The notes under the pieces were generated by a model that saw only the letters and a list, made by a program, of their open reading frames with translations, had not been told where the DNA came from and ran no database searches. A DNA stretch of 64,000 nt from Lama guanicoe (Eukaryota), in contig MU053652.1 of the NCBI GenBank assembly GCA_013239625.1, forward strand, positions 3,771,902 through 3,835,901. Direction: 5' to 3'. Positions 2,915 to 49,772 of the stretch are shown here, piece by piece. The position numbers were made by a program, and so were the translations under genes. The first letter of the stretch is position 1. Each line of letters opens with the position of its first letter.

Positions 2915-3477
2915 CCGGCCCGCCCCCTGCCCCTCCTCCGCTTTACGGCACCTGAGCCAATGGCGCGGCGCAGGGGGCGGGCGGGGCTCATGGGGCGGTA
3001 AACCCTCCCAGAGTCATTATCTCTGCACTCTGTCTAGCCCCTGCACCTCAGCGCCGGAGCCGGCGGGCCTCCGTCCGGCCGCGCCGTCCGGAGCATCCTG
3101 CGTACACTTTTCCTTGGGCTCCGCGGCCCCCTTGCCTCTCCTGCCCTACCAGGCCTGCCCCGCGGAGGCGGCTCCTCCTCAGGTGTCTGGGCCGGGGCCT
3201 CCCCTAGCAGACCTGTCACCCGACACCCAGGAAGCGCGCGGCCCCATCCCGGCTCCTCTTTGTTCCCCCGCCGGGCTTCGCGCTCGGGCGCCGCCTCCTC
3301 CAGCGTCGCGCTGTGGAGGTTCGGGGCGCCGCCTTCGGTGTGGCCCGGGCGAGCCTCGGGTTCCATCCATCGGCCCGCTCCGAACCAGGGTGCTTTCTTG
3401 CCTTGTTTCTCCGGTGTGGACTCCGTGCGGAGCTGGGAGGCGGCGGTGCGCCCAGCCCGGAGCCGGCGCAGGTGAGT
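2915..3477 (+). promoter_or_regulatory. Proximal CCAAT/GC-box promoter with putative first exon ending at a consensus donor
   Basis: CCGCCC near 2920, AGCCAATGG (CCAAT 2957-2961), GC boxes 2973-2998, consensus donor CAG|GTGAGT (GT 3472-3473); about 5 kb upstream of miR-183. Confidence 0.55.
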
Positions 3478-7934: not shown

Positions 7935-8044
7935 CCGGAGAGTGTGACTCCTGTTCTGTGTATGGCACTGGTAGAATTCACTGTGAACAGTCTCGGTCAG
8001 TGAATTACCGAAGGGCCATAAACAGAGCAGAGACAGATCCGCGA
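7935..8044 (+). ncRNA. MIR183: pre-miR-183 (5p 7961-7982, 3p 8000-8021)
   Basis: TATGGCACTGGTAGAATTCACT and GTGAATTACCGAAGGGCCATAA match mature miR-183-5p/3p; the arms are complementary. Confidence 0.99.
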
Positions 8045-8200: not shown

Positions 8201-8278
8201 TGGCCGATTTTGGCACTAGCACATTTTTGCTTGTGTCTCTCCGCTCTGAGCAATCATGTGCAGTGCCAATATGGGAAA
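8201..8278 (+). ncRNA. MIR96: pre-miR-96 (5p 8209-8231, 3p 8252-8273)
   Basis: TTTGGCACTAGCACATTTTTGCT and AATCATGTGCAGTGCCAATATG match mature miR-96-5p/3p; ~160 bp downstream of pre-miR-183. Confidence 0.99.
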
Positions 8279-12347: not shown

Positions 12348-12457
12348 CTGCCACTTGCCTCCCACCGTTTTTGGCAATGGTAGAACTCACACTGGTGAGG
12401 TAATGGGATCCGGTGGTTCTAGACTTGCCAACTATGGTGCGAGGGCTCAGCAAGTGA
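12348..12457 (+). ncRNA. MIR182: pre-miR-182 (5p 12370-12393, 3p 12414-12434)
   Basis: TTTGGCAATGGTAGAACTCACACT and TGGTTCTAGACTTGCCAACTA match miR-182-5p/3p; ~4.1 kb from miR-96, the usual cluster layout. Confidence 0.99.
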
Positions 12458-16882: not shown

Positions 16883-16960
16883 GGGAGGAAGCTGTAGCTC
16901 AGTGGTAAAGCACCTGCCTAGCAGGCAGGAGGTCTTGGGTTCAATCCCCAGCACCTCCAC
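16883..16960 (+). mobile_element. tRNA-derived SINE (camelid-type), head only
   Basis: A-box TAGCTCAGTGG and B-box GGTTCAATCC, ending in CACCTCCA like the other copies. Confidence 0.8.
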
Positions 16961-24304: not shown

Positions 24305-24468
24305 TCACTGTTCCAACGTCACCACCTCCACAGCCTGGCCGTCCATGGTGACTGCGCTGTCCGATATCCTGGTGGTCACAGGGGCCATGGCCACCTGCAC
24401 GGGGCCATTGCCCTGCGCGAGGCTGGTTACCACAGTCTGGTACATGCTCACAGGGATCTGGACCAGTC
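24305..24468 (-). CDS. NRF1: NRF1 last coding exon, 164 nt: (G)LVQIPVSMYQTVVTSLAQGNGPVQVAMAPVTTRISDSAVTMDGQAVEVVTLEQ*
   Basis: Acceptor ttgtctccccag|, phase 1, TGA stop at 24307-24305; known NRF1 C-terminus. Confidence 0.98.
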
Positions 24469-25149
24469 CTGGGGAGACAAGAGGAGATTGTTGGTGGGGA
24501 CTGGCTGCAGCTCCCTAGACGCTTCAGGATATCACTGTCTGCAGCCTCAGGTAATTGCATACCTGCTGTCTAGGTACAAATACATTCCTTTTTTCACCTC
24601 ATTTTGATTCTTTAAAACAGACTATCAGGAAAGAAAAATTTGGAGAAATTGTGGAAGCATGCCTCAGAACAGGGCATGCTCCCCAACTTGCTAAGGGACT
24701 GCACTGCCTGCCTGCCTCCAGCTTAGGACGCACAGGCCCACCACGTATGTATTCTCCTCCCAACAAGTCCACCCCTTCTGACTGCCTTCTTCTCCAGGAA
24801 AGGCTACCATTAATTTTCTTTGATATTTTGCTACACTGATTTCTTCAACCCTCTTTCTGTCTATTCTCAAGTTTCTCTCAGCTTGAAAAAACTTCTCCCT
24901 CAATCCTATCCCGTCTTCTGGGTACTGTCCCTCTCCTCAGAGTCAGCTTACTGAAACAAACAAAAAAAGGCCTAGGTCATTACATTAATTTTCTGATTTT
25001 AGATTTCACAGGCTAGTAAAATTTTAAAATACATTTTGGGGTCAACTTAAAATAAAAGAAGCAACTACCTTCTAATATCATTATTTCACAGTAGAAAGGA
25101 TGGTTTAACAAAATGAGGAAGCAAGTAATTTCAGAAAACGTCAGTCCTT

Positions 25150-26990
25150 CCTAAGAAAGGAAAGTAGATAATTTTATATGACATATTAAAAAAAGATTTC
25201 CAGTTAAATAAGACAGAATAAATGCACATATAGAACTCATCTGCCTCCTAAAATTATATCAGAAGAGGAAAAAAAGATGTGAGTGATGTCAACATATTTT
25301 TGGAAGATGCAAAGCAAATGTAAAGTGGTTCTGACTTATCAGGAAAGGGGAAGCTGCAACTTCTGTGTCCATGGAGGGCTCAGGACATGGAGGCCAAGCT
25401 TTTGCAGAATGAGGGGAAGAGACTAAAGATAGGAGTTAGCTGAAAGTTTGTATTCAAATAATTGGACTAGTAGGTACCACCAACCCCAACACTGAGATGT
25501 TGGCAGGACGTTCGAAGTTCATCCACTGTACTGAGAAACTGACCAGGAAAGGCCCCAGAAACGACCTATGGTTATATTTGGCAGGTGTGGAGATGGCGTG
25601 AGGGGGAGGGTGGGAAACGGGGTGGGGAGACAATGAAAAATCTTGGCTGGTGTCCTAAAGCTTACCATCCTGCCCAAGACCTACAGGTCCCCAGCTCTGC
25701 CCTGCACACCCCGAGAACTGGTGTTTCAGTGTCTCACTCTTACACAGAACACAGAGGTAGCAGAGAAAACATGGGGAGCAGAAGAAAACAAAAAAAACCC
25801 TAATGCCCCAAAACTCTATATTTTCAGAGAGAGAGAAAAGATTTGTAACATAAATTAAAAAGGAATATGAGGAAAAAACCCCCAATAGATGAACTACATT
25901 CCAAAGAAAGATCAGAAGGTAAAGTCAAGGGACTCTTCCAGAGAGTAGAAAAGATTAAAAGATGGAAAGTAGGAGACCTTCAGAGGTCCAATCTCTGACA
26001 AAAGAGAATTCCAGAGAGACTAGAAAAAATAGAAGGTAGGAAATTATTGGACACATTGTAAATAAATTTCTAGAAGTGAAAAGCATCAAGTTTCAGATTG
26101 TGATGTCCACTAGATGTCCTGCACAACAGGTGAAAAAAGATCCAGACACTAAGACACATCTTCACAAAACTTCAGAACACCAGGGATAAAGCAAAGATCC
26201 CAAAAGATTCGAAAAGGGACAAAGAAAGTCATATCCAAAGAACTGGAAATCATAATACTGTCGGACTTTTCAAAAGCAAGCCTGGAGGCTAGAACATAAT
26301 GAAGCAAAGCCTTCAAATCAGAGAAAAAGCTTTCAGCTTAGAATTCTCTCTCCAGCCCATGAAATGATACCTATGTCAGTTAAGTGTGGGGCAGAATAAA
26401 CACATTTTCAGACTTGTAAGGGCTCTAAAAACTGGGCACCCGTGCACTTTCTGTGGAAGCTCTGAAGGGTGTGGCTCACAGAAATGAGAGAGAAAACCTA
26501 AGAAAGAAGTGGCCATGGGATCTAGGAGACAGAGAATCCACTGCAGAGAGCTCTGGGGCAGGAGGAGGGGAAACGGCATGAGCTCGTGGGAAAGAGTACC
26601 AAGAGGGGTTGTACAGAATTGGGTCAAACCGGTGATCACCTCTTCAAAAGGAGAAGAAAAAAAGAAAAGATTAACCATAATAATTATAATACTCTCATCT
26701 TGGCAATGGACAACTTTTATGTTTATAAAGTTTAATGTTTATAATAACATAAACATAGAAACTGAGTTATCAAAAACTTGTGATAAATGTCTCAACTCAA
26801 GAAATAATGATTCAGTCTGTTATTTAGAGCAGTAAAGGTACATACGAGAAAAAAGAGCATGAAGTGTTGCTCCTGGGGTACAAATTATCTTTTTAAAAAA
26901 GGCCTTTTACTTCTTTTTGACATTTAAAGCCATATATCACTTTGATGAAAATAAAAATTAATTTTAAAAGGGATGTTTTACCAGGATATT
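25150..26990 (+). mobile_element. Ancient HAL1/L1 ORF1-like relic
   Basis: A-rich + strand with decayed L1 ORF1-like segments (AGGTCCAATCTCTGAC...CACTAAGACACATC...TCAGAACACCAGGGATAAAG...CTGGAGGCTAGAACATAATGAAGCAAAGCCTTCAAA). Boundaries approximate. Confidence 0.55.
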
Positions 26991-28549
26991 TTCTAATGCA
27001 AAAAAAAAATCCCACATAAAATGAAATGTTACTTTACAACATTAAATTGAATCTAATTGTTTTCTAGAGGTAAGTGTTGGCAGTTTAGGAATGAAGTATT
27101 TGATGATGCAACATGAAATGGGGCTTGCCGTTTTGTTTTGATGACAGTCATTTTTGGGACTCCCTGCTTACCCAGGTGGGCATTAACGTGAATGGAAGGC
27201 ATGCCATCATCCCTCATACTTGAGGCGCTGGGTGGGGCCTGAGAGGAGGAAGGAGGGCCCTACCCACACCACTATGCTGGGAGGAAGCACACTGGGGGGC
27301 CAGGCACTGGCTTCAGAAGGCTGTAGGATTTAATTTCTTTCATCTAGACCTTTGCAAATGGTGCCTACATGTCTTATTAATTCCTCTTTCTGTTCACCTC
27401 TCCCTGCCACCCAAGTTACCCAATCACAAACTTTTCAGATTTCCTGATGTTAAAAAGGTTCCTAAAGTCTATAATAAAGTTCGAATGTTGGGCATTGTAT
27501 TCAGGTCCTCTTATGATTTGTCCAGTCTCATTCCCTCACTCCCCTCACTCCCTGTGCTCTGGGCATCAACCAGCATTCTTCTCAGTTCCCCCAACATATT
27601 GGTCACATTCCTTTCTTTGGGCCCTTGCTCAAGTTGTTCACTACCTGGAATTCTCTTACTGCCCACTCCTTCCCCTTTAAAACCCAGTTCAGTTCTCTCT
27701 CCTCTTGAAAGATTATCCCAGCCCTTGTCTATATACTGACAAGTATAGACAGCATAGACAGCCTCCTTGGGATTCTCAGTAAGGACTAGACAGCAGGGTA
27801 TAATCTGGCTTGGCCCAGTTAATGTGTGTAGCTAGGCCTTCCCACTGGACTGAGGGCCCTGGCTCTGGTTCATATTCTATTGCCCACAGTATGACGTACA
27901 AGGTGTGCCATAAGTTGGCATCAGCATTGCCTCAGGGGCAACAGGCCAAGGGATTCTTCAGCTGGCCTCAACCAATGTGCAGTGGAGCTCTGCTCCCCAG
28001 CCTCTAGACACCAGCATGGGCGTGAGTATATGTGACGACTAGACAGCCCCCTTCCATTACCCTAGTGTTTCTTGACCATCAGCACTTTCAACCTCTTTTC
28101 TAGTCAAAACAGGCAAAGTTAATGAAGTAACCCCAAATGCCCTCTGGCAAAACCAAAACACCTCCAAGGAACCTACACATTAGCAAACAGCAACCAAAAC
28201 CAGGAGCAAAGTTCAGTCTCATTTGACTGTTCTTGCTTCTGGGCTTGATTCAGTTCCAAAAGCTCCAAGCTTGGGGAGTAAGTTACATGCTGTACAAATA
28301 CAGTGACTACTATGAGCAGGGAGATTCTCCCTGACTGTGAGCAACCATCCTGGGTTAGCATTTGGGGTGGAGAGAAACTTAAAGAATTGTCAAGAGTTAA
28401 ATCTCTTTCACCCTGGTTTATGGTGCATTTGAGTTTTCTATGATGTGGGTCCATGCCCAACACTGTTGTTAAAACACTTTTTAGTATCATGGAAGATGTG
28501 CCTCAAAATAAATTGGAGAAAGGTTCAAATGTAAAAATATAAATTGGCT

Positions 28550-29060
28550 GACACTGCTATAACCAGAATGATCTTTTGAACACAAACTGATCTTGTTGCC
28601 CTCTTCAACAATTCTTTAGTGGTTTCCAATGGCTCATGAGATATAAAGTCCAAATCCCTTTGCAGGTATTTAAACCCTTCTTGTTAGCCCCTGTTGTTCA
28701 GCTCAGTGATCCATAATCCCCGCCCACTTTACACTCCAGCCAGGTGAACTATTTGACTGAGGTTCTCTACACACACGCCTCCATGATGTGCATGAACTGT
28801 TACTTCTGCCTGGAATGACTGTCCTCAGCTTGTTCCTTGAATGGACTCCTCTTCTTCCTTCAATGGTCAGCCCCAGTCTCTCCTTCTCTGTCTTAGCTCC
28901 TCTTGTCCCAAGGTTCCACAGCACTTTGCGCTGGCCTCCATGGAGTCAATGGTCATATTCATTACCGCTTATCGCCAAGGAGACTGTGAATTCCTTAAGG
29001 GAGAGATGGAGTCCCCATATTTGAGTCCCTAGCAATCAGCAGGTGCTCAATAAATGATTT
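28550..29060. mobile_element. L2 LINE 3' relic (other probable L2 pieces near 27440-27720, 30600-31030, 59300-59650, 61150-61400)
   Basis: Pyrimidine-rich, ending in the L2 3' signature CAGCAGGTGCTCAATAAATG. Confidence 0.6.
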
Positions 29061-29589
29061 CTACACTCATGAATGAAACCTGCCTTCTGAGATTTCACAA
29101 GGATCCCCTCCTAGGGACTAAGTGGTTGAAGTGGGTGAGTCTTAAGGGTGATTAGGCTGTTTCAGAATGGGAGCGCTCAGTCTACAAAACAGTATTATAA
29201 AAACTACTACAAACTGATAGTATTTCAATTAACAAAACAAAACACTACTACATTCAGAACTCACCCAAATAAAACAATTTTTAAAGATTTCATCTTCTGT
29301 ACATCACCTCACAGGGAAGGAGTCAATTTAGCCTCTACAACTGGGTGATGAAATGATTCCCACACAAAGGTGTCTCGAGAGTGAATACCTGGTGACAGCA
29401 ACTACATATATAAAAAGCCTTTTGGAGGGAGACCTTCCATATACAGGGTCATTTCATGACCTCAAATGCCTTGAAATCCCAAGTCCATTATTTTCTACAT
29501 GCAGTTTCAGCCTACCTCTACCTTAAATAAATGCATTACCATTCCATTGTGGGGATTTTAGAATCTCTCTCTCACACACATGCCATTTT

Positions 29590-29870
29590 GACATGGGATT
29601 AGATTAAATCGTCTCAGTGTCTCTGACCTAGCAGCCTTTATGTCCGCGGCAAGGGAAAGGGGGAGGGGGCTGGAGGCTTGGAAACCCAGCACGCACTAAG
29701 TCCGGCCGGCTGCCCTTGGAAGAGAGATGATTAAATGCTGAGGTACAGTAATCAGGCCAGGATTGTCCCTGCATCTGCTCAGCCTGCCCCTGATTAGCCC
29801 TAATCTAGAGGGCGTATGTTAATCTAAGCTTGTATTCTGGGTCATTTCGATTGATTAGGAAACAGGACGC
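29590..29870. promoter_or_regulatory. Putative photoreceptor-type enhancer (K50 homeodomain/MAF/ROR motif cluster)
   Basis: Eight TAATC cores in ~260 bp plus AAATGCTGA, TATTCTGGGTCA, CATCTG and local CpG retention. Confidence 0.6.
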
Positions 29871-32800
29871 CCTTCCCATTCTACTTTAAGGGCTTCAAGT
29901 TCTCCTTTTTGTTTTTAAGAGAGCCCCTTGCACAACCCTAGTGATAAGACTCTCTTGGCATCTGCATAGCACTTTTCAAAGCCCTCTCACCCTCACTGCG
30001 AATCACTAGATTTCTGCTAAGACTGGAGGAAAGGTGGTATTCTTCCCTTTCACAAACGATGCACAAAGTTCCTTTGGCAGCATCATAGATTTATCATAAA
30101 TAAAGACACATATTCATGAAATCCTGAAGATTTTAGTACCCCAATCTTTCAGAGGTATAAGGAACCTTAGAGTTCATTCAGTTTAGTAAATCTAATCCCC
30201 CCTTTCTTTAAATTCCTAAATAAACAGATAAAAAGTTTATTTAAACAAAACAGACCGAGAGAGACTGATTTTCCCCCCTCAGGATGACTGTGTTTGTGGT
30301 AAAGCGAGGCATCTGGGAGTCTCTGCACGACCAGAATGCCCTTACCATAGAACACGATGGCCAGCAGGGATCCAGAAGAGGGGGAACCCATTCTCTTTGG
30401 GCTCACTGCTGCCTCTCTTCTCTGGTTTTCTTGGTCAGGTTTACAGAATTGGCCAAAATGGAAAAAGAGACCAAAAGAGACTCAGGAACTTCAGATCCCA
30501 GCACAAGGATTTGTGTGTCAAAGAGCAGTCAGACCAAAATCCTGGAGGATTTCACCACATTTCTGGACCTGGCCCTGCTCTAGTTTTCTACCAGTTGGGT
30601 ATCATTCTTGAGCCCAAACAGTCAAACACACTTCTCCCACCTCAACAAGTAGCATTTACGTCTTTCCAGTTGCTCAGGCCAAAAACTTTGAGGTCAAGCC
30701 ATCTCTGACTTCTGGTGCAATTCATCAGCAAATCCTGTCAGCTCTCCCTTCAAATAAAAACCCAGAATTCAACCATGGCTGCTGCCACCCTGGACAAACT
30801 CCTATCCTCTCCTGCCTGGCCTGTGTTTTAGCTTCCCTTGTGATCGCTCTGCTTCAGCCTGGCTCCACTGAACTCTATTCTCCCCAACACAGAAGCTAGA
30901 GGGATCTCCTAAAACTTCCATGCAAAGTGATGGACACGGGGACTGAAAATTCAGACATTTGCTCATGTTAAAGGGCTTGGCCTTGTTTTCTGCAAAACAG
31001 GAGATCATGAGGTTCTACACTGGTTTGTCTCTGATGGTGTTACCAGGGGAGGCTTTGTGGTAGACCATGGGCGCCAATGAGAGTAACTTCAAAGGTTAGG
31101 GTCACAGCCTGTACAGTCTGGATTTATCATTCATGAGCTGATCGACTCTATTCCTGACCTCTGCTGAGGTAATGAGTTTCATCACTTACCTACTACTATG
31201 TAATGGAACACACATACAAACACACACACGTGTATAAATGGAATTTATTTACTTAGGGGAATTCATTTATTCATTCCAAGACTAACTTCTTTTAGTATTC
31301 TGAGATTTGATAAATAAGTATTTTATAATGGTTCGCTAAATCTTCTTGAAATATTGTTTGGCAATGGCCACCCTCACCGTGCTCCCCCCTGCCCCACCGT
31401 CACACTTTTGGTGGCTCTCTACGAAGGGAAAAATACAGTCCAAATAGCTAATAGATGAGGGATTATATAAGACTTTCCCACAAATATTCTACATTATCCC
31501 TTCGTCACAACCATCTCTTTCCCCTCAGTACACCCTAACCACCCCATGTAATTACTCAGGCAGATTCCTCTGCTACCATTACCTTTGCCAACCTAAGTCC
31601 TGTTTTTCAATGATTTCCTTGACTTTCATAGGGTCACCCCAAACAGAACAGCCCATTAGGTTCTCTCCTTCACAGGATTTTACTGCCTCACTATTCATTT
31701 GGCACCAGATCTGTGCTAACCTGTTTCCAAATAGTTTTTCTCTGTATAAATCTGCTTACTTAAGATTGTTGGCAGGACTATGTCTGAATACCGAGCAACC
31801 TGAACATAGTAGATGTTTAATAACTGAATATGACAATTGATCATGTTCTTCATGATTTTCAGAAACTTGATTACATTCCCATTAGCCTTGGCCTCTGCAG
31901 CCTGAGGGGCCTTAGAGCCTTTTACTCTGCTCCGGAATGAGTAGGATTTTCTCCACAACATTCTTAAGGTAGCACAGCCAAATGCTGATGGTCGTTCAGG
32001 TACAGTTTTTGTGAGGGCAGAATAGGCTGTTCTATTTTCATTAACATCTGCCCAGTCAGAAAGACCTACATGTGAATCCTGGCTCTGCCACTTAACTGGC
32101 TGGGGAGCCTCACTTTCATCACATGTAAAATGGTAATTACTCGTTCCACAAGGCTGAGAACCAAATGAGCTGACGTAAAGTTTGGCACAGTGCCCGGCAC
32201 ACAGTAGGTATACGATAGATGTCTGCTGCTTTCAAAGATGACTTTGAATATGAGCTTTGATAAAGTCTGGTTGGGGTCACAGATGTTAGACTAAAGCTCT
32301 CAGGAAGCAGAAAGGAAAGCAGAGACAGCACAGATCTCCTTTCAGCAGCAATTTGCCTCTGCTAGGAAGCACATCATTTGCCAAAGACCTTCAAAGATGT
32401 AAAGATTAGAGATAAAAGCCATGAAATCAGGGCAGATGGACTGGCAGGCAGCTTCCTTTCTGAAACGCAGCAATGGTCGGAACTGGCCCTGGAACTCCAT
32501 CAGGACAGGTATGAAATAGCTGCCCATTCAGGGTATTGGTGAATAAATAACCTAGGTTACGCCACTGATCAATATTAGGAATGTTAAATACATGATCAGG
32601 GACAGTATGATATGATGTCACTGTGCTGATAAATCTCTAAACCCCGAGACTAACAACATGGGCTCAAGCCCAGCAGAGCAGAGCTGCAGGCCTGGTCAGG
32701 GTCAACGGAGAATGACAGACTGCCCCCCCCCCACAAGATAGAGCAGGACAGACGGCCTGAGGAAGAATGGGCCTTTCATTTGCCCTCACAATCTGGGAAA

Positions 32801-33124
32801 CCTTTGGGAATTCTTGTTTCTGTAATTGAATCTTTCAGCCCAAAGGCCTTCCAAGTTGGTCATGGAAATATCTTTCGTTGGGAGAAAAATATTGATGGTT
32901 GTGAGAGAAAAACAGCTAAAGAAATAAATTATCAAACAGACACAACAGTTGGTGGAAGAGCAACAATTCTTTAAACCCAAAGGAAAAATTCACAATGTAA
33001 TGCCTTCTGTGGTTGATGGACATGAAAGCTAACTATATATATTAGGAAAATGCTGGCTTAAATGCGGAACCAGAAGACTGTGACTGAAAAGGATAGGAAT
33101 AAATAAGAAATGAAATCATGTATT

Positions 33125-33291
33125 AAAAAATTATTTATTTATTTATTTACTTACTATTGTGTTATTTATTTTATTTTGGCGGGGGGGTGGTGGTGGAGAT
33201 TAGGTTTATTTTTAGAGGAGGGACTGGGGATTGAACCCAGGGCCTTGTGCATGCTATGCATACGCTCTACCACTTAAGCTATACCCTCCCC
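33125..33291 (-). mobile_element. tRNA-derived SINE, full length with tail
   Basis: Reverse complement GGGAGGGTATAGCTTAAGTGGTAGAG...GGTTCAATCCCCAG...AAATAAACCTAATCTCC...CCCCCCC followed by an (AATA)n tail. Confidence 0.85.
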
Positions 33292-35264
33292 GCCACGTAT
33301 TGTTATTATCTAAGTCACTTCTGTAGTTTTTAAAGAACCATCGAGGGTATCTACAAGCATTATTAGGGGTGACAGGTACAAGGGAAGCCCTTTTAAAAAT
33401 CTTATCTGCAGGCCTGAAAAGAAATTTACATCAGTAACTAACATATAAGGAAATTCACTATTATATGAAGAAAAATATGGTGTGTACTGATGTAGAAATG
33501 AGAGAACATGAAAGGAAATCAGGTAAAGAAGGTAGTCTGTAGGCAACAGATAAAGAGGCTGAGAATAACAACCAAGGACCAGATGGAAAGAAGATCCAGG
33601 TTATCCTCATGATAGCAAGACAAGGAGGAAACAAAAAAACCATTTCTCTCCCAGTGGTTATTTTTCTATTAGCTGCTTCTGGGACATTTAATCTTCCTTT
33701 TCCGTGTTTTTTAAGTTCATGGCTTTTGGGTGCATTTGAGGGATTTATGGATTAAAATATGTATTACATCTGGCAAGTACTGAATATTCTCATGAAGCCA
33801 ATAGCAGCCTCTCAGGTACTTTGGTGTAACAGGCACTTCTCAGCATCCAAGGTTTTCTTCCCTCTTGCTAGACAATCTCAAGCTTCTCTTGGAAAACCCA
33901 CTTTCTAGAATAACTCTTGTAGCAGTGACTTTGTCTGGGTGAGACAGTAACACTGTATCTTTTGCCTTGATTTTGTAGGCCACCTAGAAAATCCTCTCGC
34001 CTGCATCCCATAAGCCAAATGTTAAAAGTGAATTAATTTTTACTTTATTAGTAAATGTATTTCAAAACATATTTTGGAGATATAATTTCACCATTTCCTC
34101 TTGAAATTATTAGATCGCCCAGGAACATGAACAAACTCAGGGTTTTGGGCTTCAGTGTTCAGAATCACCATGGTTTATTATCCTGGGGATTGAGCTCCCA
34201 ATGTGAGGTTGAACAAGCTGACTCCAAGGCCTGCTGATTTGACCAAGAGAGCTTTAAACTGAAAATGGCAGGAGAAAAAAAGTGTTCCATTAAAGCTTCA
34301 GGACATGTATGCACTCAGGAGGACATCTGATCAGAGATGTACAGAGAAGGGCAGAAGGTGTATGGTAAATTTCCAGAGATCACTGGGAAGGAGGGTGGGG
34401 ACACCACCCAAAGTCTCCAAAGTCTGTTTAGTGGACAGGGTGTGGGCAATACGTACAGTGTTGGTTATTTTAAAACAGGAAATGGAGCCAACATGACAGA
34501 AACCTCAGGAGAAAGTTACCAAGCTAATTTAAGAGCTTGTAATAGTCAGGTGTAGAAAGAAATATGAGGGCCAATCAGGAGCTACCCAGAGTTGGAATGG
34601 AGATTTATTAATCTTTCTGTTACTATTTTCAAATTTTTTTACTATGGAAAATTTCTAATAGACACAAATAGAGAGAGACTGGTCAAAGGACCCCCACTTC
34701 CACGTGCTCGCCATCAGTCCTTGCCTCTTCTATCTGAACAGGGACAGACTGAGGCAAAACGCTTCCAAAGATGTTCTCACTTTTCAATCCCTCACTTAGC
34801 CCAATCTTAGGGCACCATTTAGAAAACAAACAAACGAACACTGAAACTTTCTAAGAGCACATAAAGGGCAGAATTAAATTTGCTTTCAGCAGTGACACAC
34901 CGGAAAACAGCAGATTGGAAAGTAGAAATAAACAGTTATGGGGCTTGTTGGTCACAAAGAAAGAAATCTATCTTAATAAACTTCATTTTGATCAAGTACT
35001 TATCCTGCCTTTTCTATCTGGTCTGGACTTCAGCATAACCAAATTGTTAATGGGGATAAGTTCTTTATAAAGAATTTTCAGCTAATTAAGACAGAAGGAA
35101 TGATAACACTGGAGAAATCACCATTTTGTAACTCTTAGTGAAATAATGGATCTACACAAAATCATCAATGGTTACTAAAACCATCAGGTGACCAGGCGAT
35201 GAGGACCACAGAACAGAGGAATTCCACCATCCACGCAGGATGCAGCGCCTGGAAGGACAGCCTC

Positions 35265-35368
35265 TTAGCTATTCTGTCCTCCAGCCACCTCCTCCTTTCT
35301 GCAAAGATGAACCCCCTGTGGCATTCTGTCAGCGTCCACTCGCAATGGGCAATCTGCCATACAGAGGC
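35265..35368 (-). other. NRF1: Degenerate NRF1 alternative exon in the last intron (GLCMADCPLRVDADRMPQG...)
   Basis: Acceptor tattattgtcag| at 35369-35370 is in phase 1 with exon 10. Resembles the recalled human alternative insert GLFMADRAGRKWILTDKATG. The expected donor position reads GG; read-through stop at 35267-35265. Confidence 0.6.
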
Positions 35369-35560
35369 CTGACAATAATACAGAACTTTTACAAGGCACA
35401 AGGGCCACCAGAAAGTGCTGCGGAGGGGAAGCTGCAGGCAGACTGCCTCCCATGCACAGCCTGGTGCCCGGGGTACACAGGCGTCTCTGACACCTACCCG
35501 TGGGGGTTTTACAAATCCTTTGGCAACAAAACAAAAAACCCCCCAAATATAAGAATTTTA

Positions 35561-35660
35561 GGGAGGTGCATAGCTCAGTGGTAGAGCACATGCCTCGCAA
35601 GCATGAGGTCCTGGGTTCGATCCCCAGTACCTCCATTAAAAACAAACAAACAAACAAAAC
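35561..35660 (+). mobile_element. tRNA-derived SINE with (AAAC)n tail
   Basis: GGGAGGTGCATAGCTCAGTGGTAGAGC...GGTTCGATCCCCAGTACCTCC; flanked by a 16-bp direct repeat. Confidence 0.88.
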
Positions 35661-36729
35661 AAATCCTTTGGCAAGTGTGCCAGTCCACTGAGTGCTAATG
35701 GTGCACAGGTGTATCGAGGTACATCTTACAGTCAGCTCTTAGTTGAGCCAAAGGGAGGATAGGTCATTCCCCCACATCGCTCTTCTAAACTGGAATTTAT
35801 GATGTGCTTTCCTTGTAGCAGACTTACTAATTATGTCTTCTTTAAGCTACTATGAAAACTAATTTGTGTTCCTTAAGTACCCAGCAGCTGGGTGCAGGGT
35901 AGAAGGAAGAGATGGTCCAGGCTTACTTACACTGGCTTGCTTAGAGAAACTGTCCAAGAATATAAAATGTGTCATGAGTAATCTGCATGACAGATAATTC
36001 ATGTGTGGCAACTAAGAGTAGACTACATTAGGATAAGTAACATTATATTTACGTGATCTAAGTTCTTGAGGAAAAAGAACTGTCTAAATTTGAGGTAGTA
36101 TAGTTATTTCAAATAGGTTTTCCCCCAGGAGTCAAAGTAACCATGCAGTAGCTCCCAGAGGCAGACAAATGGAGGAAGCAAGCTTAAAGATCCTGCCTTT
36201 GCGCCCCAGAGCTGCGGAAAAATGGAAGATGCCACCAGATCAGTGTTCTACCCCCAGGAGTGCTGTTGTCCATGCCCCATGTTACACAGAATAAACAATT
36301 CATTTACATGCTCTTAGCCCCTGTGTGTTCACATGTCCTCTTGTCAATGAGAAGCTCTGTTTACTGAGAAAAGAACTCTTCAGTCAAACAGTAGGGCTAT
36401 GAAAGCTTAAGGAAGGGAAGGCCCGGCAGCAGGTCAGCTGTAAGTGGATATTCCTACAACTAAAGTCCTTTCTCATGGTTACAATTCATCATTATTATTG
36501 TTTTGTGAGCAGTGGGCAGTGGGTGGGGAAAAGGCATGAGATTCTTGGAGCAAAAAAAATTTAAAGGTGAAAAGATAAAGATCATAGTCAAGTAACATGG
36601 CTAGAAGACATTGTTCCCAAAACATTCAGGCAAATTTCCTTCTCCCTTCCGACAAGGCTGAAACAGAAAGTCCAAGGCTCACTGAAGCAGCCAAGACATT
36701 TCAGGAGGTTCAGGTCAATCTCTAAAACC

Positions 36730-36890
36730 GTCCTGTCCGCTAGAACTCTCTGTGAATGGACGTATTGTATTGTGCGCTGGCCAGTAAAGTGGCTACAGAG
36801 TCACTTGAAATGTGGCTAGTGTAACTGAGGGAATGAGTCTTTAATTTTATCTGATTTTAATTTCAGTTTAAATAGCCAGAGCACAGCTCT
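36730..36890. mobile_element. MER3-like relic
   Basis: CACTTGAAATGTGGCTAGTGTAACTGAGG...TTTAAATAGCCA. Confidence 0.6.
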
Positions 36891-39158
36891 AAAGCCTTCC
36901 CAGAGCTTCCAGCTCCAAATCATAAGCATGCTTCAGTAACACACACATTGTAGCACATGATAAGAGTTGCCTTTGTTTAGGTGGAAACTCAATCTGAAAC
37001 TGGATGCTCTGCATTCACCTAAAAAATATTTTCCTGGCATTTCCCTTATTTATGTCACAGGTTTTTTTCCTTTGCTGCTCTACTCCATCAATTGATTTTT
37101 ACACACCCTACCCCCGTGGCCCCTAGGTGAGAAACTTTATCATCATTTGAGAACACTTCAGTATAGCTATACATTTTAGCACTACAAGCATACGGTGAGG
37201 CTGAGCTGGACAGAGTCAGAGAATGGCTGGACGCCTCTCCGGTGAGCCAATCTGATAGCAGGGTCTTTGTACTCTCGCTCAGAGCAGTGTCTCAGTTTCC
37301 ATATTTAGACCCCTTCAATGATTCTCAGATCCATTTGCCAGCTTTACAATGGAAAAGATTTTTTTTTAAAAAGTCAATTTTACTTCAAAACCCCATTTAG
37401 GCTCTGAAAATCTCTAAATTGGGGCCTTTTTAATAATGAAGATTTGGTGTAATTATAATGTCACAGGCAATTGTGCTGACAAAGCAAAACCAGTATGTCT
37501 CCTTGCTGGGCCTTTGCTCTCAGTCTGACCAACAGGAGGAGAAAAGAAGCTTTGTCAGGAGCAGATGTGCAGTGGGAGGCCCCAGGAAAGCAGATCTGCT
37601 GAATGAAGCAGGTGCCACTTAGACATTCACTTTACTGACTCCAACCACAACCTCCCTTTCATTTGATATCCTGGTCTTGGCAGGAGGATGGGGAAAGAGC
37701 ATCACACAAAAAGGAAGCATGTTTATCCTGTTCAGATTACTGCTCTGCTAGGCTGCTGCTGCCGGATTCTGCACATTTGCTCTTTATTAAGCAAATGGTA
37801 GAGCTGGGAAGTGAATCCCTGTATTTACACAGGTAATCTGAGAGACAGAGGGCCCCAAACCATACTGGCTGCGATGTGCAAGCTATTAGAGTTAATAACA
37901 GTGTGCTGACATTCCTTCAAAATCCTAATGGAAGCATAAATAAAAAGAGGAAAGTCCCCTTTACCCAAAACCTTAAAATTTTATTCTGTAAGAATTTTTC
38001 CTGCTGTGATATTCTGGTTCTTATGTGAACAATAATTAATCCCCTTTTTACATGCTCAATTAAAACCACATTTTCATCCACATATTGAGTACAAATGACT
38101 CCAATTAAATTTGTCCAATTGTGGCTCTGGATTTGGTATGCCAAAAAAAAAAATCCCTTTACAGAATATTACCTGCAATCATAGGCACCAAGATTCTGTC
38201 TTGGTTACAAGGAGCTGGAATCATCTAAGACCAGAATCTGTCTTTCGAATACAAAGACTCAGAAAGATCTGGGGACCTAAAGGGAAGGAGAATGAGATAA
38301 CGAAACATGTAACTTGGCCATGAGGACACTGGGGATGGAGAGGAGACCATGGTCAGTGGTATCTATCTGCCTGATGGCAGGCACCTTTTTGGGAATCTCT
38401 GCCCTGAGTCCTCTGTCCAGAGTGGCCCTAGCTCATCAAGTTTCCCCAAGCTGACAATACCCAACACAGTCAGACCGACCTCGCTTCATACGTGTGCTAA
38501 TTCCCTCTGGGCCCCGAGGAGCCAACTCTGGAAGCATTCAGCTTTCAACACAGAAAGCATCTGAAGGACATGGCCATGGCTCAGATAAGTACTAAGAACA
38601 GAGACCAATGTATAGTGGCCATTTCATTGTAAAGTCTCCTTTTTTCTCTGCAGAGCCTAGATTAACAATTCCTGTGTGCAATGAATGCCTGAGGCCACCC
38701 CAGTTTATGATGGTGGAGAGGAGAAGGCACAGCCTCTCTGGACTTGCAGACGCTACAAGGAGAAAGATGAATCTAAGCATCACAATGACACTTTCAAAAG
38801 GCAGTCGTGCTCCTTCTGAAGGTACCCAGAGGTTAGCATCCTTGCAGGAGACAAAGGCATCAAAGGACTCCAATAACTAGAAACCCCTACAGCTGTGGAG
38901 GGTATGTGTGATGAGTGACAGAAAAGGTCTGACAATTCTAGAGAACAGAATCTCAGCTTTGTCTGCCCCAGCATGCCTCAGGGACACAGTATGCATCCAT
39001 CAGTAACAGAGGCTTTCTGAAGCAGGGATTCTCTGTGTGAGATTCACACCTGCTCTCTTCAAAAAAAGGCTTACTATACCAGATCCTAAGAATGTGTCCC
39101 GGAAGGAAGTGCTATGAGTGAACCCTCTGAAGATAAATTCCCTTCAGTGTCAGTGCCC

Positions 39159-39202
39159 AATAATAATAATAATGATAATAGCAGTGGTAGTAGTAGCAGT
39201 AG
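39159..39202. repeat. (AAT)n/(AGT)n low-complexity trinucleotide tract
   Basis: Seen directly. Confidence 0.85.
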
Positions 39203-40016
39203 TTCAGTTATTGTATGCTCACAGTGCCCCAGTGCTAAAGAGAGCAGGACTAAATATTTTCTGCTGCCCCTAAAATCAGTGCCATCAATCTGTCTCCCTG
39301 GATGGGGGAGACTGGGGAGTCAGAAAAACTGCCACTTCCACTGAGAGCTATGGAAGGCATTTTGGACTTCAGGAGGTCATAAAGAAGGGAGTAGGAAAGG
39401 AGGACAAGCTTCTATGCTATGAAAGGGCTGGGTGAGTAACACAAACGGGGTGGAGAACTGTACTCTCTTGGGTATTTTTGAATCAAGAGCTCCATGTTCC
39501 CATTTCTCAGAAGCAGCCATGTTTCACTGTGAAATCTGGAATTTATCCAATGGTAATGGCTTTTTTCAGTCTGTAACCCACCAGGCTCTGGATATTTAAT
39601 CCTTTTGGGGGTCACGATAAATCCATTAGCGTGCCTGACCTGAAGACGGCTGTAGCTGAGAAGAGAAATCAGCACTTGTGGGGCATCTAAGTAATGGCAG
39701 GTGGCCTAGGTCATGAATAAAGAGACGGGGAAGTGGGTCTAGGTGTCACCACTGCCTCCTGTCTCAGGTTTTCCTCCTCTGGACTCTGCAGTGCACAAAA
39801 ATAGGCCAGTTCTTCCTGCAACCCTCCTGCCCAGCTGTTTACTGGCTGTGGATTACTGTAGTCACATGGTAGGGTTTTTTTTTAGCAAAGCCATGCTGTC
39901 TATGAGCTGAGAAGGTCACTGGGAATGAAGGCTTGTGAGGTATTTCTGTTGTCCTCCCCTGTGCAGAGGGGGCACAACTTGCCAGAAGACACAGTATTTT
40001 TGCTATGGCTGAGATC

Positions 40017-40298
40017 AGTGCAATCCAACAGAGCCTTTTGCAATGATGGAAATGTTCTATATCTGTGTGGTCCTTTAGAAGCCACTAGCTACGTGTGGCT
40101 ATTTAAATTTAAATGTGAATAAATTAAAATTAGATAAAAAATTCTGTACCCCAGGCGACACAGGGCTACTGAACACTTGCTTGAACTGTGGCTAGTGTGA
40201 CTGAATAACTGAATTTTTAATTCAATTTAATTTTAATTAACTTGCATTTAAATTCAAATAGCCACACGTAGCTAGCAGCTACCAAACTGGACACAGCT
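40017..40298. mobile_element. MER3/MER33-like palindromic hAT MITE
   Basis: TGATGGAAATGTTCTATATCTG; internal inverted repeat CTAGCTACGTGTGGCTATTTAAATTTAAATG ... CATTTAAATTCAAATAGCCACACGTAGCTAG. Confidence 0.75.
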
Positions 40299-40733
40299 TT
40301 AGATCTTGGGTTTTGGTGCCATTTACTCATTTGCTTCTGTTAAGATTTATCATGACACTACCTTCTGAAGTGAGCAAAATGTGGCCATGACCCATTCCTT
40401 AAAACGATCCTGCAAAATCATGAGCCACACCAAGTAACAGATAAATAGTAAAGATGATGATTTTCATTTGTATTATACCTCCTCCACTTTCTAGGTTGGG
40501 TGAATTGGCCAGATGGAGTGAAGGGGGAAAAGGGAGCCCATGTCAGCAGTAGAAAGAGTCCTGGAGATCTGGGTTTGGTTTCCAGTTTTATCATTTAGTA
40601 GCTGAGAGACCCTAGGCAAAGCCCAGCTTTAGCTGCCTCTGCAAAACAGGGCTTGTAAGCTCTGTTCTACCCACCTTACTGAGTGCAGGTAGAATAACAC
40701 AGAGAGTGCTTGCTTAGTTAACTGCAAAGGGGT

Positions 40734-40786
40734 TATGGTGGTGGTAGTGGTGGTGGTAGTAGTAGTAGTAGCAGCAGCAGCAGCAA
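40734..40786. repeat. Compound trinucleotide repeat (GGT)n(AGT)n(AGC)n
   Basis: Seen directly. Confidence 0.9.
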
Positions 40787-43700
40787 CAGTGAAAAAAAAA
40801 AGGACAGAATGAAGAAAGAAAGGGGAAAGATGAAGGACTAAATAATTATGCTCAACACACAGCCGAATGGCAAATATAGAACAAAACTCAAACAGTTATT
40901 TTCCTGGTATGATATCTAACAACTTGTTTCGCAGGATAAAAACTATTCATTCAGAGAAAAATGATTTAAATGAGGAATACCCTGTCTGCAAAGAAAATGT
41001 GTTTCCCAGAGTGGCCCGTGAAGCACACTGCGAGGCACCCTGTCCCGAGGTGCTGGCTTCCCAGTCTGCCCGAGATGCAGGCCCTGTTCACGTACTCAGC
41101 CCTTACCCTTCTTTCTGAGCCACACCTCTGAGCTCTCCTTATTCTATTTGTTCTAAGAAGTAATCTTTTCAGGTCTCTATGTCCCCCTCCCCCTCCATTT
41201 AGAAAAGACTTATGATTCTGAAGGGGAAGCGGGTGTATAACAGATGAAACTTAATGTGCTTTTTCTTACAGAACAGGTAATGCCTCAGTTTGGTCTCACT
41301 GACACCATCTTAGTATCTTAGCTTCCCTTCAGGTCTCCCTATCAGTGGAAAAGAGGGCCACAGACTTTGCAGGAGGGTGGCCTGAAACCCCATGGCTCCA
41401 TACCATAGGCACTGTTCTCTGGGGACTGTTAGGATAGGGGGCTCGCAGCCTGGGACTCTCAGCTCACACAAAACACTGCTGCTCAGGGGCTGCCTGCTTC
41501 CAGTCCTGGGGGCCCTGAACTCACTATCTTTGCATTATAGGTACAAATAGAATCACAATATCAAAGAACACAACAATTCCTTTAAAGCTATTATCATTCA
41601 TTATGGTGACTGAACACGTACCTTTACAATAAAACTTTATTTAATACATTTACTTATTTAAACTTTAATTAAAATACTGAGGCAAAAAGTGATTTAGTGC
41701 ATACTAGAATAGCATATCAGCAGTTTTTTGGGGGAGCAACATTTACATATTTCCTAAATTAATATAATATTTACATCTCCACTAACTCTTTTAGGAGCAA
41801 GTCTGTGTACTAATATGTCCAGAGAATGAGGAGCACAGAAAAAGGGATAATGAGAGATGTGTTTTATAGTTTATCAAGATGAGGACTAGCATTTATCTCT
41901 TATTTTTAAATTAGAGCTGGACATATTATAAGTAATTTTAAGTAGAAAGACATATTTATTATGAGTAATAATGGATGATGGTAGTGGTGATAAGAAGACA
42001 AAAGTGAAAAAAAAAGTCACCCTTCATGATGGAAATTGAAATACAATGCAGTTGTTGACATGTGAAGAGAGGTTATGCCATTAGAAGTCACAAAGGCCAT
42101 ACTAACTACCGCACACAGTGCTGGAAGAGAGCAGCAGCCCTGGCCCAAGAAGAGTGATGTAACCAGATGCAGGAGCCGTTAAACAGTGTCACCCTCAGTC
42201 AAAGTTCCTTCAATTTCCTTCACTCAAGGTTATAGAAAAGGCTCTGATCTATTCCCATTTTTACAGTATTCATCTTTGGAGCATAAATCCTTCAATTGCA
42301 TAAGGTAAGCATCTGGATCTGTCCTAAAGACATGAAAGCAGGGTCTATAACAGTACTGTGTGCTCTGTACAATGCAACGTGTTTGGAGGAATGCTGGAAG
42401 AAGAAATTGATGCTGACAGCTAATGATAATTTTATGTTTAAGATATATCTATGTGCCAGGCACTATGCTAAGTACTTCACAGGAATCAATTTGTTTAATG
42501 CTCACAGTTACCTTATGAGCATGGAACTATCACAATCCTAATTTTATAGCTAAGCCCTAGAGAGGTTAATGTGCTTGCCCAAGATCACAGAGCTAGGCAG
42601 TGGTGCAGCTTTTAGAGTATCCAGCTAGGCCTGCAGGTCCTCGCATCTCCCTTGCCCCTCCTTTTACTCCCAGTGCCATACGAGATACCCACAAAGTTAA
42701 ATGACCCTTGCCACACAAAATGAAGAGGTGGGTGGGGGAATGGGAGATCTCTCTGTGATCTATTTGCACATCTGATCAAAGCTGTGGATCCCAGAAAAAT
42801 AGAAAGCTGTTGTATAGGATTTCTCAGGATCCACAGATCCAGGTTAAGGATGCTCTAATGTTTGAATAATACACATAAAGTAGGTTTCCACAGAAAATTA
42901 AAACACACACATCACCCCCTTCAGGTCCACCTGGGCTTACCTCTTTACACCAGTACAGGACAGACCTAGCTATCCTGTCTCACATGGGAGGCCTTGCAGA
43001 ATAGGAAAGCATGTTCTACTCTCTCACGTAAGGATCCCACCCAGAGTCCTGCTCCCATATCTGAACTCCATGTTTCTGTCTTCATCCACCTACTCTTTTA
43101 TCCTTCTTGCTAAAAATTCTAGGCCAATTAAAAAAAAGGTATTCCAATGAACCCAGTTGAGATTAAATTCAACTGGGGAAAACATACATATTTTTTAAAG
43201 TTGTTGAAAAGATCAAAGAAAAACATGACAGTGAAAAGGGGATGACACGTTCATGAAGTGTGAAAAGAAGACAGAGTGTTTTTTTCAGAAGGAATGTGAA
43301 AACTGATTTAGTTTGATTTGGCAGTTGGAATGGGTAGTGAAATGTACAGCCGTTTCACAGTACAGCAAGACTGAGGGGGGTCTTTGGGTTGCAGGAAATT
43401 TTCTGTCGACAGATCTTTAGAGGGAATCTCAGCAGCAGGACAATTGGCAAGGCCAGGCCACAACGAAGAGGGATGTATGGCACTGAAGAGAAATGAGAAG
43501 GGTTGCTCGTCCTGTGAGGATAACGTCAATGCCGTGCAATCAACTTTAATTTTTAAACAGATCCAGCCCTCTAGTCCGCTTCTCTTCATTTAACGCATGA
43601 GGAAGGTAGCTGGCCCCCAGTCTCAACCAGGACAGCACAGGCAGGTGGTCTCTGGGTGTCGGACAATAGGGAAAGATGTACTTTACGAACGCTCTGGGGG

Positions 43701-44389
43701 AACGAAATCAAGGGCTGGAGGCAGAGCCAAGGGGAAGGTGCAGTGAGCAGCAGGGGAAGCAAATTAGTCAGCCAACTTGCTTCAGGCAGAAATGGACACT
43801 CCCTCGAGCCCTTTCCTATACCCCGCAACCCTACCACCTCGGTCTCCATTTCCCTGGAGGCAGGTGGAAGGTTGAAGGAGCCCTGGCATAAACTGAAGGG
43901 CAGCAGGAGGGCTCAGGCAGAGGCTTCTCTGGTGAAGAAACACCTCTTCAGCTGCATTTACTTCTTTCTGACTGTCATCTACTTCTTCCCAAACAATATC
44001 CTTTTGTTCTAAACAGCACCCCGCCCCATCATATTTACTAACTGCAAAGTGATCTGCTCACTGAAAATACTTAAGTCTGACAGCCAGCCGCTGGCTGGTT
44101 CTGTGAATTCTGCAAATGGAGAAACACACAGACCTATGGGCTTCCCCAGGCCAGCAGTGAGTGGGGCTGCTGGGTTGGGGAGCACTTGGTACCAGAAACC
44201 CCCAGAACGTCCCTACAGCCTTCAGGAACAGCTGGAGCAGACGGGCACTGTGGCTAAACTAGACAAAAGGCAAGTGGCATTTAGCAGAGATGGGGAGAAA
44301 GGCCTGACATTCCTAAACTTATTTGTTCACCATTGGAAGACAATCATCACTCTGTATTTGTGGAGTCCAGACAGAAACCAGCTCACATT

Positions 44390-44630
44390 AAAGGGAGGCA
44401 GCAGAGTAGAGGTTTGGAAACAAACTGCTTGAATTCAAATTCCATTTCTGCCACTGTGTGTGTGAACCTGGTCAAGTTACTGAAACTTTTTACATCTCAG
44501 TTTCTGCAAATGTTAAATGAGGACAACAGTGTTTACCTGACAGCTTCATTCTCAGTTTTAAATAAGTTAATGCATGTAAAACACTTAGCAGAGTGCTAGC
44601 ACAAGCAAGTATTATATGAAAGTTTGTTAA
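44390..44630. mobile_element. MIR SINE (one of many; other probable MIRs near 140-235, 8870-9060, 19370-19840, 32060-32230, 42440-42610, 54960-55200, 55550-55790, 61690-61850)
   Basis: MIR core TTCAAATTCCATTTCTGCCACT...TCTCAGTTTCTGCAAATGTTAAATGAGG...ATGTAAAACACTTAGCAGAGTGCT. Confidence 0.7.
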
Positions 44631-45279
44631 GTAAGTACAATTAATGGGACAATGGGATTGAGAGACAGAATGCAAGGTCAATAGTGGAAAAGAATGCTGG
44701 TGTCCTATCATGGTGTACACCATAAATGAGCAGTGCCCCACCCCATCATCTTTAGTACAAAAAAATGAAACTGAAGTTGGGGGAAAAAAAGTGAAACTAA
44801 AATTTCAGAGTACAAGAACTGAACCTCCATAGAATTATGCATAAATAGAATGAATGGCCACAATTTCTTAGTCTAGGAAGACACACCTGGTTTGGTCTTA
44901 AGAAATGAGCACCATTGCAGTAGGGACAATGTCTCCTCCAGCAACAATTAGTGTCCCGTGATTCAGTTCACTGGGGCAGTATTCAGACCACTTGCTTCCC
45001 ACTCCTGGTCGATCTCTGTGATTATGAACATTCCCCATGTCCTCTGCCCCAGCGGAAACGGGGCAGATGGAGACGAGAAAACTTAAATTAGTCAATTTTA
45101 AAACTTCTTAGCAGTTCTTCTAAAAGGCTTGGTAAGATTTTTTTTTTAAGGCTAAAACAAGGCTTAATTCTTCCAGATGAACTTTAAAATTATTATAAAG
45201 TTCAATTCCCAAAAAAAAATCTTAGGATTTTGTCTGAACTTTTTTCAAATTTGGAGATAGGCCTTTCATTAACCGCTAA

Positions 45280-46320
45280 ATATAACATCACAATAGTAAA
45301 ATATTACAGTATAAAGAACAGATGAATAGAAATAGAAGAGTCCCACACACGACCCTACACAGTTTAAGAATTCTGCATAATAAAGATGACATTTCAAATC
45401 AGTTTAGAAAGGATGGATTTCAACCTTTTTATAGAATGAATGGTGCTAGAATAATTAATTATGTAGGGGAAAAAAATCAATTCAGATTCTTACCTAATGC
45501 CATATACCAAAATAAATTCCAGATACTTTATAGTATTTAAAATAAAAATTAAGTCCATAGGAGAACTGGCCTATTGTTAGATATTTATATAAACATAAAG
45601 GCAAAAGAGAAATAATTAAGGAAATAAAAATGAAAGTAACAGAAGTGGAATAAAAATAAACTGGGAAAAACTACAACATACACAATAAAGGGATTATACT
45701 TTTATCTCTCACTGATTTGGAAAAACTCTTCATATATTAAAGACTCCAAAAGAAAAATGGGTGAAGAAAACAAATAGACAAATACTAAAATACTAAAACA
45801 CTAAAACCTTGAAGAAAAAAAGTAAAAATATCTATCACTAATGTTAAAAATGCAAATTAAAGTGGAACACAACTTCTTGCCTATCAAATAGGCACACACA
45901 AAGTAAATTAAGCTAATATTCAGTGTTGGTGAGGGGTAACAAAGCGGGTTCTGAACAGTACTGTTGGAAGTATAAAGAAGTAAGAGCCACATAGCAAAGA
46001 ATCAAAGTGTGGGCAAGGCTTTGTACAAAGGTTATTTTGTTGTAAAAAATTTATTAATGACCTAAATTACTACCAGTAGGGGACTGATTATTATGATGGA
46101 GAACATGATGATATATTAGCAAGCATTAAAGTGATCTTTTCAAAAAATATTTAACTACATGAAAATGGTTAAGATATTTCAAAGCAAGTTATGAAATAGT
46201 ACAGACATGATCCTAATTAGGTTAAAAAATTTTATGAATGGGGGAAAAAAGGGCCATATTTTAAAAACTCAAAATATTAACATTCTATGTAGTGGGATCA
46301 TAGATGATTTTTATAGTCAG
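45280..46320 (+). mobile_element. Ancient L1ME-like 3' relic
   Basis: A-rich; decayed ORF2/3'UTR motifs (CATATACCAAAATAAATTCCAGAT, AAAATGCAAATTAAA, CAGTGTTGGTGAGGG). Confidence 0.55.
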
Positions 46321-49300: not shown

Positions 49301-49647
49301 CTACAGCAAAGGACATGGATCTACCCATGGAAGAAAAAGGACAAAATGTGCCCCACAGCAAATTTTCATATCCTTCTCAGCAAGTCCTGTCACAGCAAAC
49401 ACTTTCCAAATAAGCAATTCAGTTAGGTAGCCATCATTATATTTTTCCCCACTCAAGAAACCCCAGGTCTCCTACTAGTGAAAGGAATCAAAGGCTCCTA
49501 GAATTTTCCTAAGTATCAATTGCCTACCAATATTTAAAAAACTCAAATCAAACTCAGCTTCATTCTGAAGGGTTTGCTGTCAGTCATGTCATGAAGGTTT
49601 AAGTGGAAACAGGGAAGAAATTCAATAAAATATTTATGCTCTCTTAC

Positions 49648-49772
49648 CATTAGCATCTTGGACTCCAGTAAGTGCTCCGACGGCTGCTGCGGTTTCCCCA
49701 GACAGGACGATCTGTCCCCCCCCTTGCAAGGTGGCCTCCGCCAGGGTGGCGACAGCATGGGCGGCAGCTTCG
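49648..49772 (-). CDS. NRF1: NRF1 coding exon (exon 10 equivalent), 125 nt: (S)EAAAHAVATLAEATLQGGGQIVLSGETAAAVGALTGVQDAN(G)
   Basis: Acceptor atccacag|, donor AATG|GTAAGA; phase 2-1. Confidence 0.97.

Follow-up and report, generated by a model that had tools for sequence, protein, structure and literature searches.

The TAATC core is common to the K50 homeodomain proteins OTX1/2, CRX, PITX and GSC. One locus at which it is of interest is that of the miR-183/96/182 cluster, which is expressed in a cell-type-specific manner, is central to the maturation of photoreceptors and hair cells, and is also expressed in bipolar cells, retinal pigment epithelium (RPE), pineal, olfactory or otic epithelium and pituitary; the adjoining gene, NRF1, has a promoter of the housekeeping type. 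About 6,000 sites are bound by CRX in the mouse retina, and low-affinity sites are more numerous at the distal sites that depend on CRX (PMC6069558). Binding of CRX is favoured by GC and CG content, and the cooperative CRX dimer requires the arrangement TAAT-NNN-ATTA with strict spacing (PMC6169884). Enhancers and silencers cannot be told apart by the number of CRX motifs alone (AUROC 0.55), silencers are likewise high in predicted CRX occupancy, and CRX-bound tiles occur in all activity classes; what sets strong CRX enhancers apart is the diversity of their motifs, those of NRL, RORB, NEUROD and MAZ being enriched relative to silencers (PMC8492058).

The promoter region of miR-183/96/182 is itself CRX-responsive. 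It includes a strong local CRX enhancer, mouse chr6:30175025-30175189 (mm10), which is bound by CRX and NRL and whose activity falls from 18.7 to 3.8 when the CRX sites are mutated (PMC8492058). Long-range control of miR-182~183 has already been predicted in print, in Table 3 of PMC3123655, where the locus is given as bivalent and with 4 CpG islands. The combination of a long CpG island and a bivalent promoter at the target, which characterizes regulatory blocks, is therefore found at miR-183/96/182. The available text of a 2015 review (PMC4551935) deals with promoter-side and intergenic control only, and never mentions NRF1, an enhancer or CRX. We found no paper on an NRF1-intronic enhancer of miR-183/96/182 in a search that had most subscription journals outside its coverage. 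Public retinal chromatin atlases may well list the orthologous site as an element, annotated yet undiscussed.

The window analyzed here is a stretch of 64,000 nucleotides of Lama guanicoe DNA that contains the miRNA cluster and the 3′ part of NRF1. Rfam matches on the plus strand identified the precursors of miR-183 (7954..8027), miR-96 (8201..8278) and miR-182 (12363..12439), and NRF1, which lies on the minus strand, is transcribed towards them. The CpG-rich stretch located upstream of the cluster, at about 1000-5500 (CpG observed/expected ratio about 0.5-0.84), is presumed to be the miRNA promoter region. Three more TAATC cores are found at 4379-4490, on the 3′ side of this CpG island and upstream of miR-183. 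Rfam also returned tRNA matches at 16888-16959, 33217-33288 and 35564-35635, which are mutually similar dispersed copies and most likely represent tRNA-derived SINEs, not tRNA genes.

The NRF1 exons recognized on the minus strand include one at 63232-62933, which gave the only Pfam match (PF10491) among four NRF1 exon peptides, the penultimate exon (49648..49772), and the coding part of the last exon (24305..24468), which was assigned by protein identity and contributes 53 residues that are 100% identical to many named NRF1 C-termini. The penultimate and last exons are separated by a GT-AG intron of 25,179 nt (24469..49647; donor 49648, acceptor 24468), the last one of the main isoform, and are joined directly in 66 of the 97 junction-spanning proteins among the 120 NRF1 proteins fetched. 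The candidate enhancer, at 29590..29870, is located in this intron, in agreement with the earlier note that drew attention to it. From its center the distance is 5.3 kb to the last NRF1 exon, 17.3 kb to miR-182 and 26.4-27.7 kb to the promoter region of the cluster. The distance to the counterpart of the promoter peak (2020-2090) is 27.7 kb versus more than 34 kb to the NRF1 start, which falls outside the window and in mouse is presumably about 100 kb from the element.

The same intron includes possible traces of other NRF1 isoforms. On the minus strand, 26641-26598 may represent a 42-nt cassette exon that keeps the frame; its pyrimidine tract is good and its donor weak, and a predicted 14-residue insert from 8 NRF1 proteins (hippopotamus, whale, dolphin and buffalo among them) aligns to 26639-26598. 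The element would then lie within the second-last intron of this minor isoform. At 35368-35312, also on the minus strand, the 19-residue cassette exon known from NRF1 of primates, rodents, birds and turtles likely persists as a frameshifted remnant; its start is similar in one frame and its CKW-like part in another, and its donor is weak.

Several other origins of the element were considered and rejected. There was no frame-keeping candidate exon in 29000-30500, and the best two alignments of each of 19 NRF1 isoform inserts fell elsewhere. Comparison with Rfam gave no matches to E=1, and the minus (transcribed) strand folded more weakly than 190 of 200 shuffles, which argues against a structured RNA. 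Self-comparison and a tandem-repeat search detected no tandem or interspersed copy of the element within the window. The single metagenome match to a 21-base gapped pattern did not align beyond that pattern (39 nt, 77%) and was attributed to chance.

Inspection of 29590..29870 showed eight TAATC cores (29597, 29602, 29729, 29749, 29792, 29801, 29820 and 29853), one TAAGCT, two MAF-type sites, two nuclear-receptor half-sites of which one is ROR-type, one CAGATG E-box, one MAZ-like tract and nine CpGs. Every motif listed by the earlier note is present where that note placed it, although the interpretation of some of them had to be modified. Just one of the eight cores is TAATCC, while three are TAATCT and four are TAATCA. 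The sole optimal TAATCC is part of a direct repeat of two K50 cores (TAATCT, TAATCC) on the minus strand at 29596..29606. This repeat is followed by an AGGTCA half-site (29624..29629, minus strand) and a MAZ/SP-like G tract, GGGGAGGGG (29660..29668, plus strand). Within 29728..29754, a K50 core adjoins the NRL-type site AAATGCTGA (29733) and a second K50 core comes after it. An E-box, CATCTG (29772), overlaps the MAF-type site TGCTCAGC (29776) at 29772..29783; the proposed NEUROD-type site is thus present, but it reads CAGATGC and not CAGATGG, and taken alone it is unremarkable, being reached by 3,643 of 20,000 shuffles. The inverted pair GATTAG-CC-CTAATC is also there, at 29791..29806, but its cores are arranged tail to tail, which differs from TAAT-NNN-ATTA, and hence it is not the cooperative CRX dimer. 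The plus-strand segment 29820..29844 combines TAATCT, TAAGCT (29825) and the ROR-type site TTCTGGGTCA (~29833-29835), and the last K50 core, TAATCA on the minus strand, occupies 29852..29857. As for the two ROR-type sites that had been claimed, TTCTGGGTCA is of the full type and is one of three such sites within the 64 kb, but the half-site at 29624 is devoid of an AT-rich 5′ extension, so that the element has one full ROR-type site only. Inverted nuclear-receptor half-sites, GGGTCA-n5-TGACCT, were observed just outside the element at 29440-29462. Their first 16 nt share 88% identity with the ROR-type site at 29833, a likeness that suggests that the element may reach about 150 bp further.

The window has 80 TAATC cores, eight of them in 29597-29857, and the next best 280-bp stretch has three. 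The number expected by chance is 0.35 from window density and 0.61 from the mean of local shuffles. Dinucleotide shuffling of the element (20,000 shuffles) never gave eight cores, and uniform placement of 80 sites gave eight anywhere in the window in 2 of 200,000 trials; block-wise Markov simulations (n=300) produced a maximum of six. When all 5-mer pairs were ranked by local clustering TAATC came 13th, and the 12 words above it consisted of one AT microsatellite, 10 CpG-island words and one A-rich tract. A chance origin of the TAATC cluster is very unlikely. Among the partner motifs, the NRL-type pattern WWNTGCTGA was reached by 941 and the ROR-type pattern WWNTRGGTCA by 299 of 20,000 shuffles. 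These two patterns and CAGATG occurred together in 2 of 20,000 shuffles and, within 281 bp, in 3 of 1,275 overlapping windows, all three covering the element, and a six-class motif count gave 15 for the element and 6 for the next best place in the 64-kb window; since the partner consensus strings were picked after the sequence was seen, these co-occurrence and six-class figures are partly circular, the TAATC test being less so. The local retention of CpGs was confirmed as well: the element has nine, compared with a mean of 2.2 in 89 intron tiles, one of which reached nine, and its observed/expected ratio is 0.49 versus 0.18. This retention suggests lasting low methylation. A second CpG-retaining patch, found in the same intron at 43296-43860 (9 and 6 CpGs in adjacent 281-bp tiles), is not accompanied by a TAATC cluster.

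The features that define CRX-targeted enhancers were then compared with those of the element. It has K50 homeodomain motifs clustered above chance and a raised local GC and CpG content, and by consensus string it includes four of five partner classes (NRL, RORB, NEUROD and MAZ), MEF2 being absent. Neither published pattern of the cooperative TAAT-NNN-ATTA dimer had a match in 29500-29950; the dimer strengthens an assignment to the class and is not required for it. The photoreceptor-type grammar initially proposed for the element fits well, its motif classes being those enriched in strong CRX enhancers (PMC8492058). As the motifs of photoreceptor factors occur far beyond chance, the element is likely an ordinary retinal enhancer. 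Judging from sequence, it is probably a photoreceptor enhancer of the CRX/OTX2 type.

The mouse counterpart of the element was located indirectly. The promoter-region K50 pair at 2020..2090, within the CpG-rich stretch, was matched by eye to mouse chr6:30175025-30175189, and this match anchors the window to mouse coordinates. Subtraction of 27.7 kb from the anchor, with a tolerance of 10% in either direction, gives an estimated position of about 30.145-30.150 Mb on chr6 (mm10), which agrees with what we take to be the coordinates of Nrf1. No tile from mm10 30.12-30.17 Mb is included in the 4,844-tile library of PMC8492058 (3,299 CRX peaks, earlier-tested peaks left out), and none from the range equal to mm10 30.13-30.16 Mb is among the tiles listed in PMC6169884 (1,270 CRX peaks), the coordinates of which were taken as mm9 because the promoter peak is displaced by 50 kb. 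The latter study has tiles at the miRNA promoter and between miR-96 and miR-182, and the CRX peaks near the cluster in the two libraries include those at mm10 30.1675, 30.175 and 30.180 Mb. Of about 6,000 peaks, at most 4,569 are represented in the two libraries; a CRX peak at the mouse position is therefore made less probable by the absence, but could still exist. Two neighbouring CRX-bound tiles, chr6-30179905 (PMC8492058) and mm9 chr6_30117534 (PMC6169884), were inactive or weak in reporter assays.

A block of H3K27ac in mouse rods, chr6:30,111,800-30,187,799 (76 kb), spans both the promoter peak and the estimated position of the element, and by eye is the second largest among the rows examined in supplement 8 of PMC4798964. 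In the same data, rod H3K27ac extends far into Nrf1: over a range of at least 30.059-30.213 Mb, its gaps do not exceed 1 kb. The region chr6:30.06-30.21 Mb thus shows near-continuous rod H3K27ac over about 150 kb, a super-enhancer-like size, including much of Nrf1 and the miRNA cluster. Acetylation this broad neither pinpoints the element nor picks NRF1 or the miRNAs as its target. In the main text of a study of Hi-C in human retina (PMC9547065), neither NRF1 nor the miRNA cluster is named.

The earlier note assigned the element to the miRNA promoter and regarded NRF1 as a bystander host. We tentatively favor the first proposal, by which the element could be a photoreceptor enhancer whose main target is the miR-183/96/182 promoter at a distance of 26-28 kb. 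In favor of the miRNAs are their nearness, their CRX-responsive promoter region, their cell-type-specific expression and the published prediction of long-range control. The second was weakened by the properties of Nrf1 in mouse. The outer nuclear layer shows robust Nrf1-lacZ, and a conditional allele from which exon 4 is deleted and in which the last intron is untouched leads to the death of rods (PMC6192121). Acetylation extends through much of the gene, and Nrf1 RNA is modestly sensitive to the loss of NRL or NR2E3: the values are 45-47 TPM in wild-type and 33-36 in Nrl-null retina, and 52-56 TPM in rods and 38-39 in rd7 rods, reductions of about 25-30% (PMC4798964). Being strong in the photoreceptor layer, and given that its exon-4 deletion kills rods, Nrf1 is not a clean bystander. 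The related suggestion that the element confounds retinal phenotypes of NRF1 lesions is unsupported for mouse because the exon-4 allele spares the last intron and rods die nonetheless. The zebrafish nrf1 insertion reportedly lies near the 5′ end of the gene and would leave the element in place. This insertion mutant loses photoreceptors (PMC3029675). For the element to explain the conserved linkage of NRF1 and miR-183, as the earlier note suggested, it would have to be conserved as far as fish.

These observations, together with the location of the element inside NRF1, could also be accommodated if it were a photoreceptor enhancer that acts on NRF1 mainly, or on NRF1 and the miRNAs equally, and so increases mitochondrial biogenesis in photoreceptors, whose energy demand is high. 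We consider this unlikely, since the NRF1 promoter is much farther than that of the miRNAs and is of the housekeeping type. Nrf1 counts in rods are about 1.8 times those in blue cones, which would agree with such a role, but the gene was not called differential (PMC5335693); the effects are small in general, and Nrf1 levels are equal in rods (52-56 TPM) and cones (55-57 TPM) (PMC4798964). Furthermore, Nrf1 protein is present in all nuclear layers (PMC6192121).

A different explanation would be that the cluster of motifs binds CRX or OTX2 but is inactive, acts as a silencer or is lineage-restricted, and that neither gene is measurably affected. The absence of the estimated position from both mouse CRX-peak libraries, the poor activity of the two neighbouring tiles, the high predicted CRX occupancy of silencers and the spread of CRX-bound tiles over all activity classes are consistent with it, and the local promoter enhancer may suffice for the miRNAs. 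Nonetheless, it appears somewhat unlikely: a chance origin of the cluster is very unlikely, no tandem or interspersed copy within the window explains it, the diversity of its motifs points to the enhancer class, and its CpG retention suggests lasting low methylation. It is quite improbable, on the other hand, that the element is a K50-homeodomain enhancer working mainly outside photoreceptors, through OTX2 in bipolar cells, RPE, pineal, olfactory or otic epithelium, or through PITX in the pituitary. That TAATC is shared by all these factors, and that most cores are TAATCA or TAATCT, would suit this explanation, which would also account naturally for the absence from adult retinal CRX peaks. 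High levels of the miRNA cluster have been described in non-SHH medulloblastoma, a tumor in which OTX2 is implicated (PMC7266940). However, an NRL-type site adjoining a K50 core plus a ROR-type site is the rod combination (PMC3325202, PMC8492058), and the region is covered by the rod H3K27ac block (PMC4798964).

If the element is a photoreceptor enhancer acting mainly on the miR-183/96/182 promoter, CRX or OTX2 would bind additively to its many sites of medium affinity, NRL and RORB would act as partners, and this occupancy would keep it open and under-methylated. The element would be one module of a large acetylated domain, which in mouse rods comprises the miRNA promoter as well as the 3′ half of Nrf1, and would act partly redundantly with the CRX sites at the miRNA cluster itself. 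The weakest step in this mechanism is that contact with the nearer, cell-type-specific miRNA promoter would have to exceed contact with the distant housekeeping promoter of NRF1. A small effect on NRF1 too is likely. A much stronger version is very improbable. In it, the element would be conserved across vertebrates and would be the dominant distal driver of miR-183/96/182 in photoreceptors; it would hold the miRNA genes next to NRF1 and couple a sensory miRNA to a factor of mitochondrial biogenesis, with the consequence that NRF1-intron lesions, the zebrafish nrf1 insertion included, would act partly via the miRNAs and that human variants within it could cause retinal disease. A compact, motif-rich distal module is a ready deletion target and a place to seek non-coding variants, and it could possibly serve as a short photoreceptor driver for vectors.

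The element is likely a new case within a familiar class, the CRX/OTX2-type enhancers, at a locus of biological interest, and with about 6,000 CRX-bound sites already known in mouse retina (PMC6069558) the gain is specific to this locus. Like the CRX-targeted strong enhancers of mouse (PMC8492058, PMC6169884, PMC6069558), it has several K50 motifs together with NRL-, RORB-, NEUROD- and MAZ-type motifs, and like CRX-bound regions it is a GC- and CpG-richer patch in a distal, intronic location. In contrast to the usual CRX-bound regions, it has in our judgement more TAATC cores, most of them sub-optimal, and is devoid of the cooperative dimer; unlike the regions in the libraries of PMC8492058 and PMC6169884, its estimated mouse position is in neither. 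The closest relative is the promoter-region enhancer of miR-183/96/182 (chr6:30175025-30175189), which shares with the element the locus, the motif family and the rod H3K27ac block. That enhancer is promoter-proximal, bound, strong and CRX-dependent, whereas the element is a candidate located 27.7 kb downstream, inside NRF1. The arrangement as a whole resembles genomic regulatory blocks of the miR-9 type (PMC3123655), in which a tissue-specific miRNA with a long CpG island lies beside a broadly expressed gene and an intron of the adjoining gene, as is the case for NRF1, carries the candidate enhancer. The difference is in the host: unlike the bystander of those blocks, NRF1 is required in the cells concerned and is enriched there.
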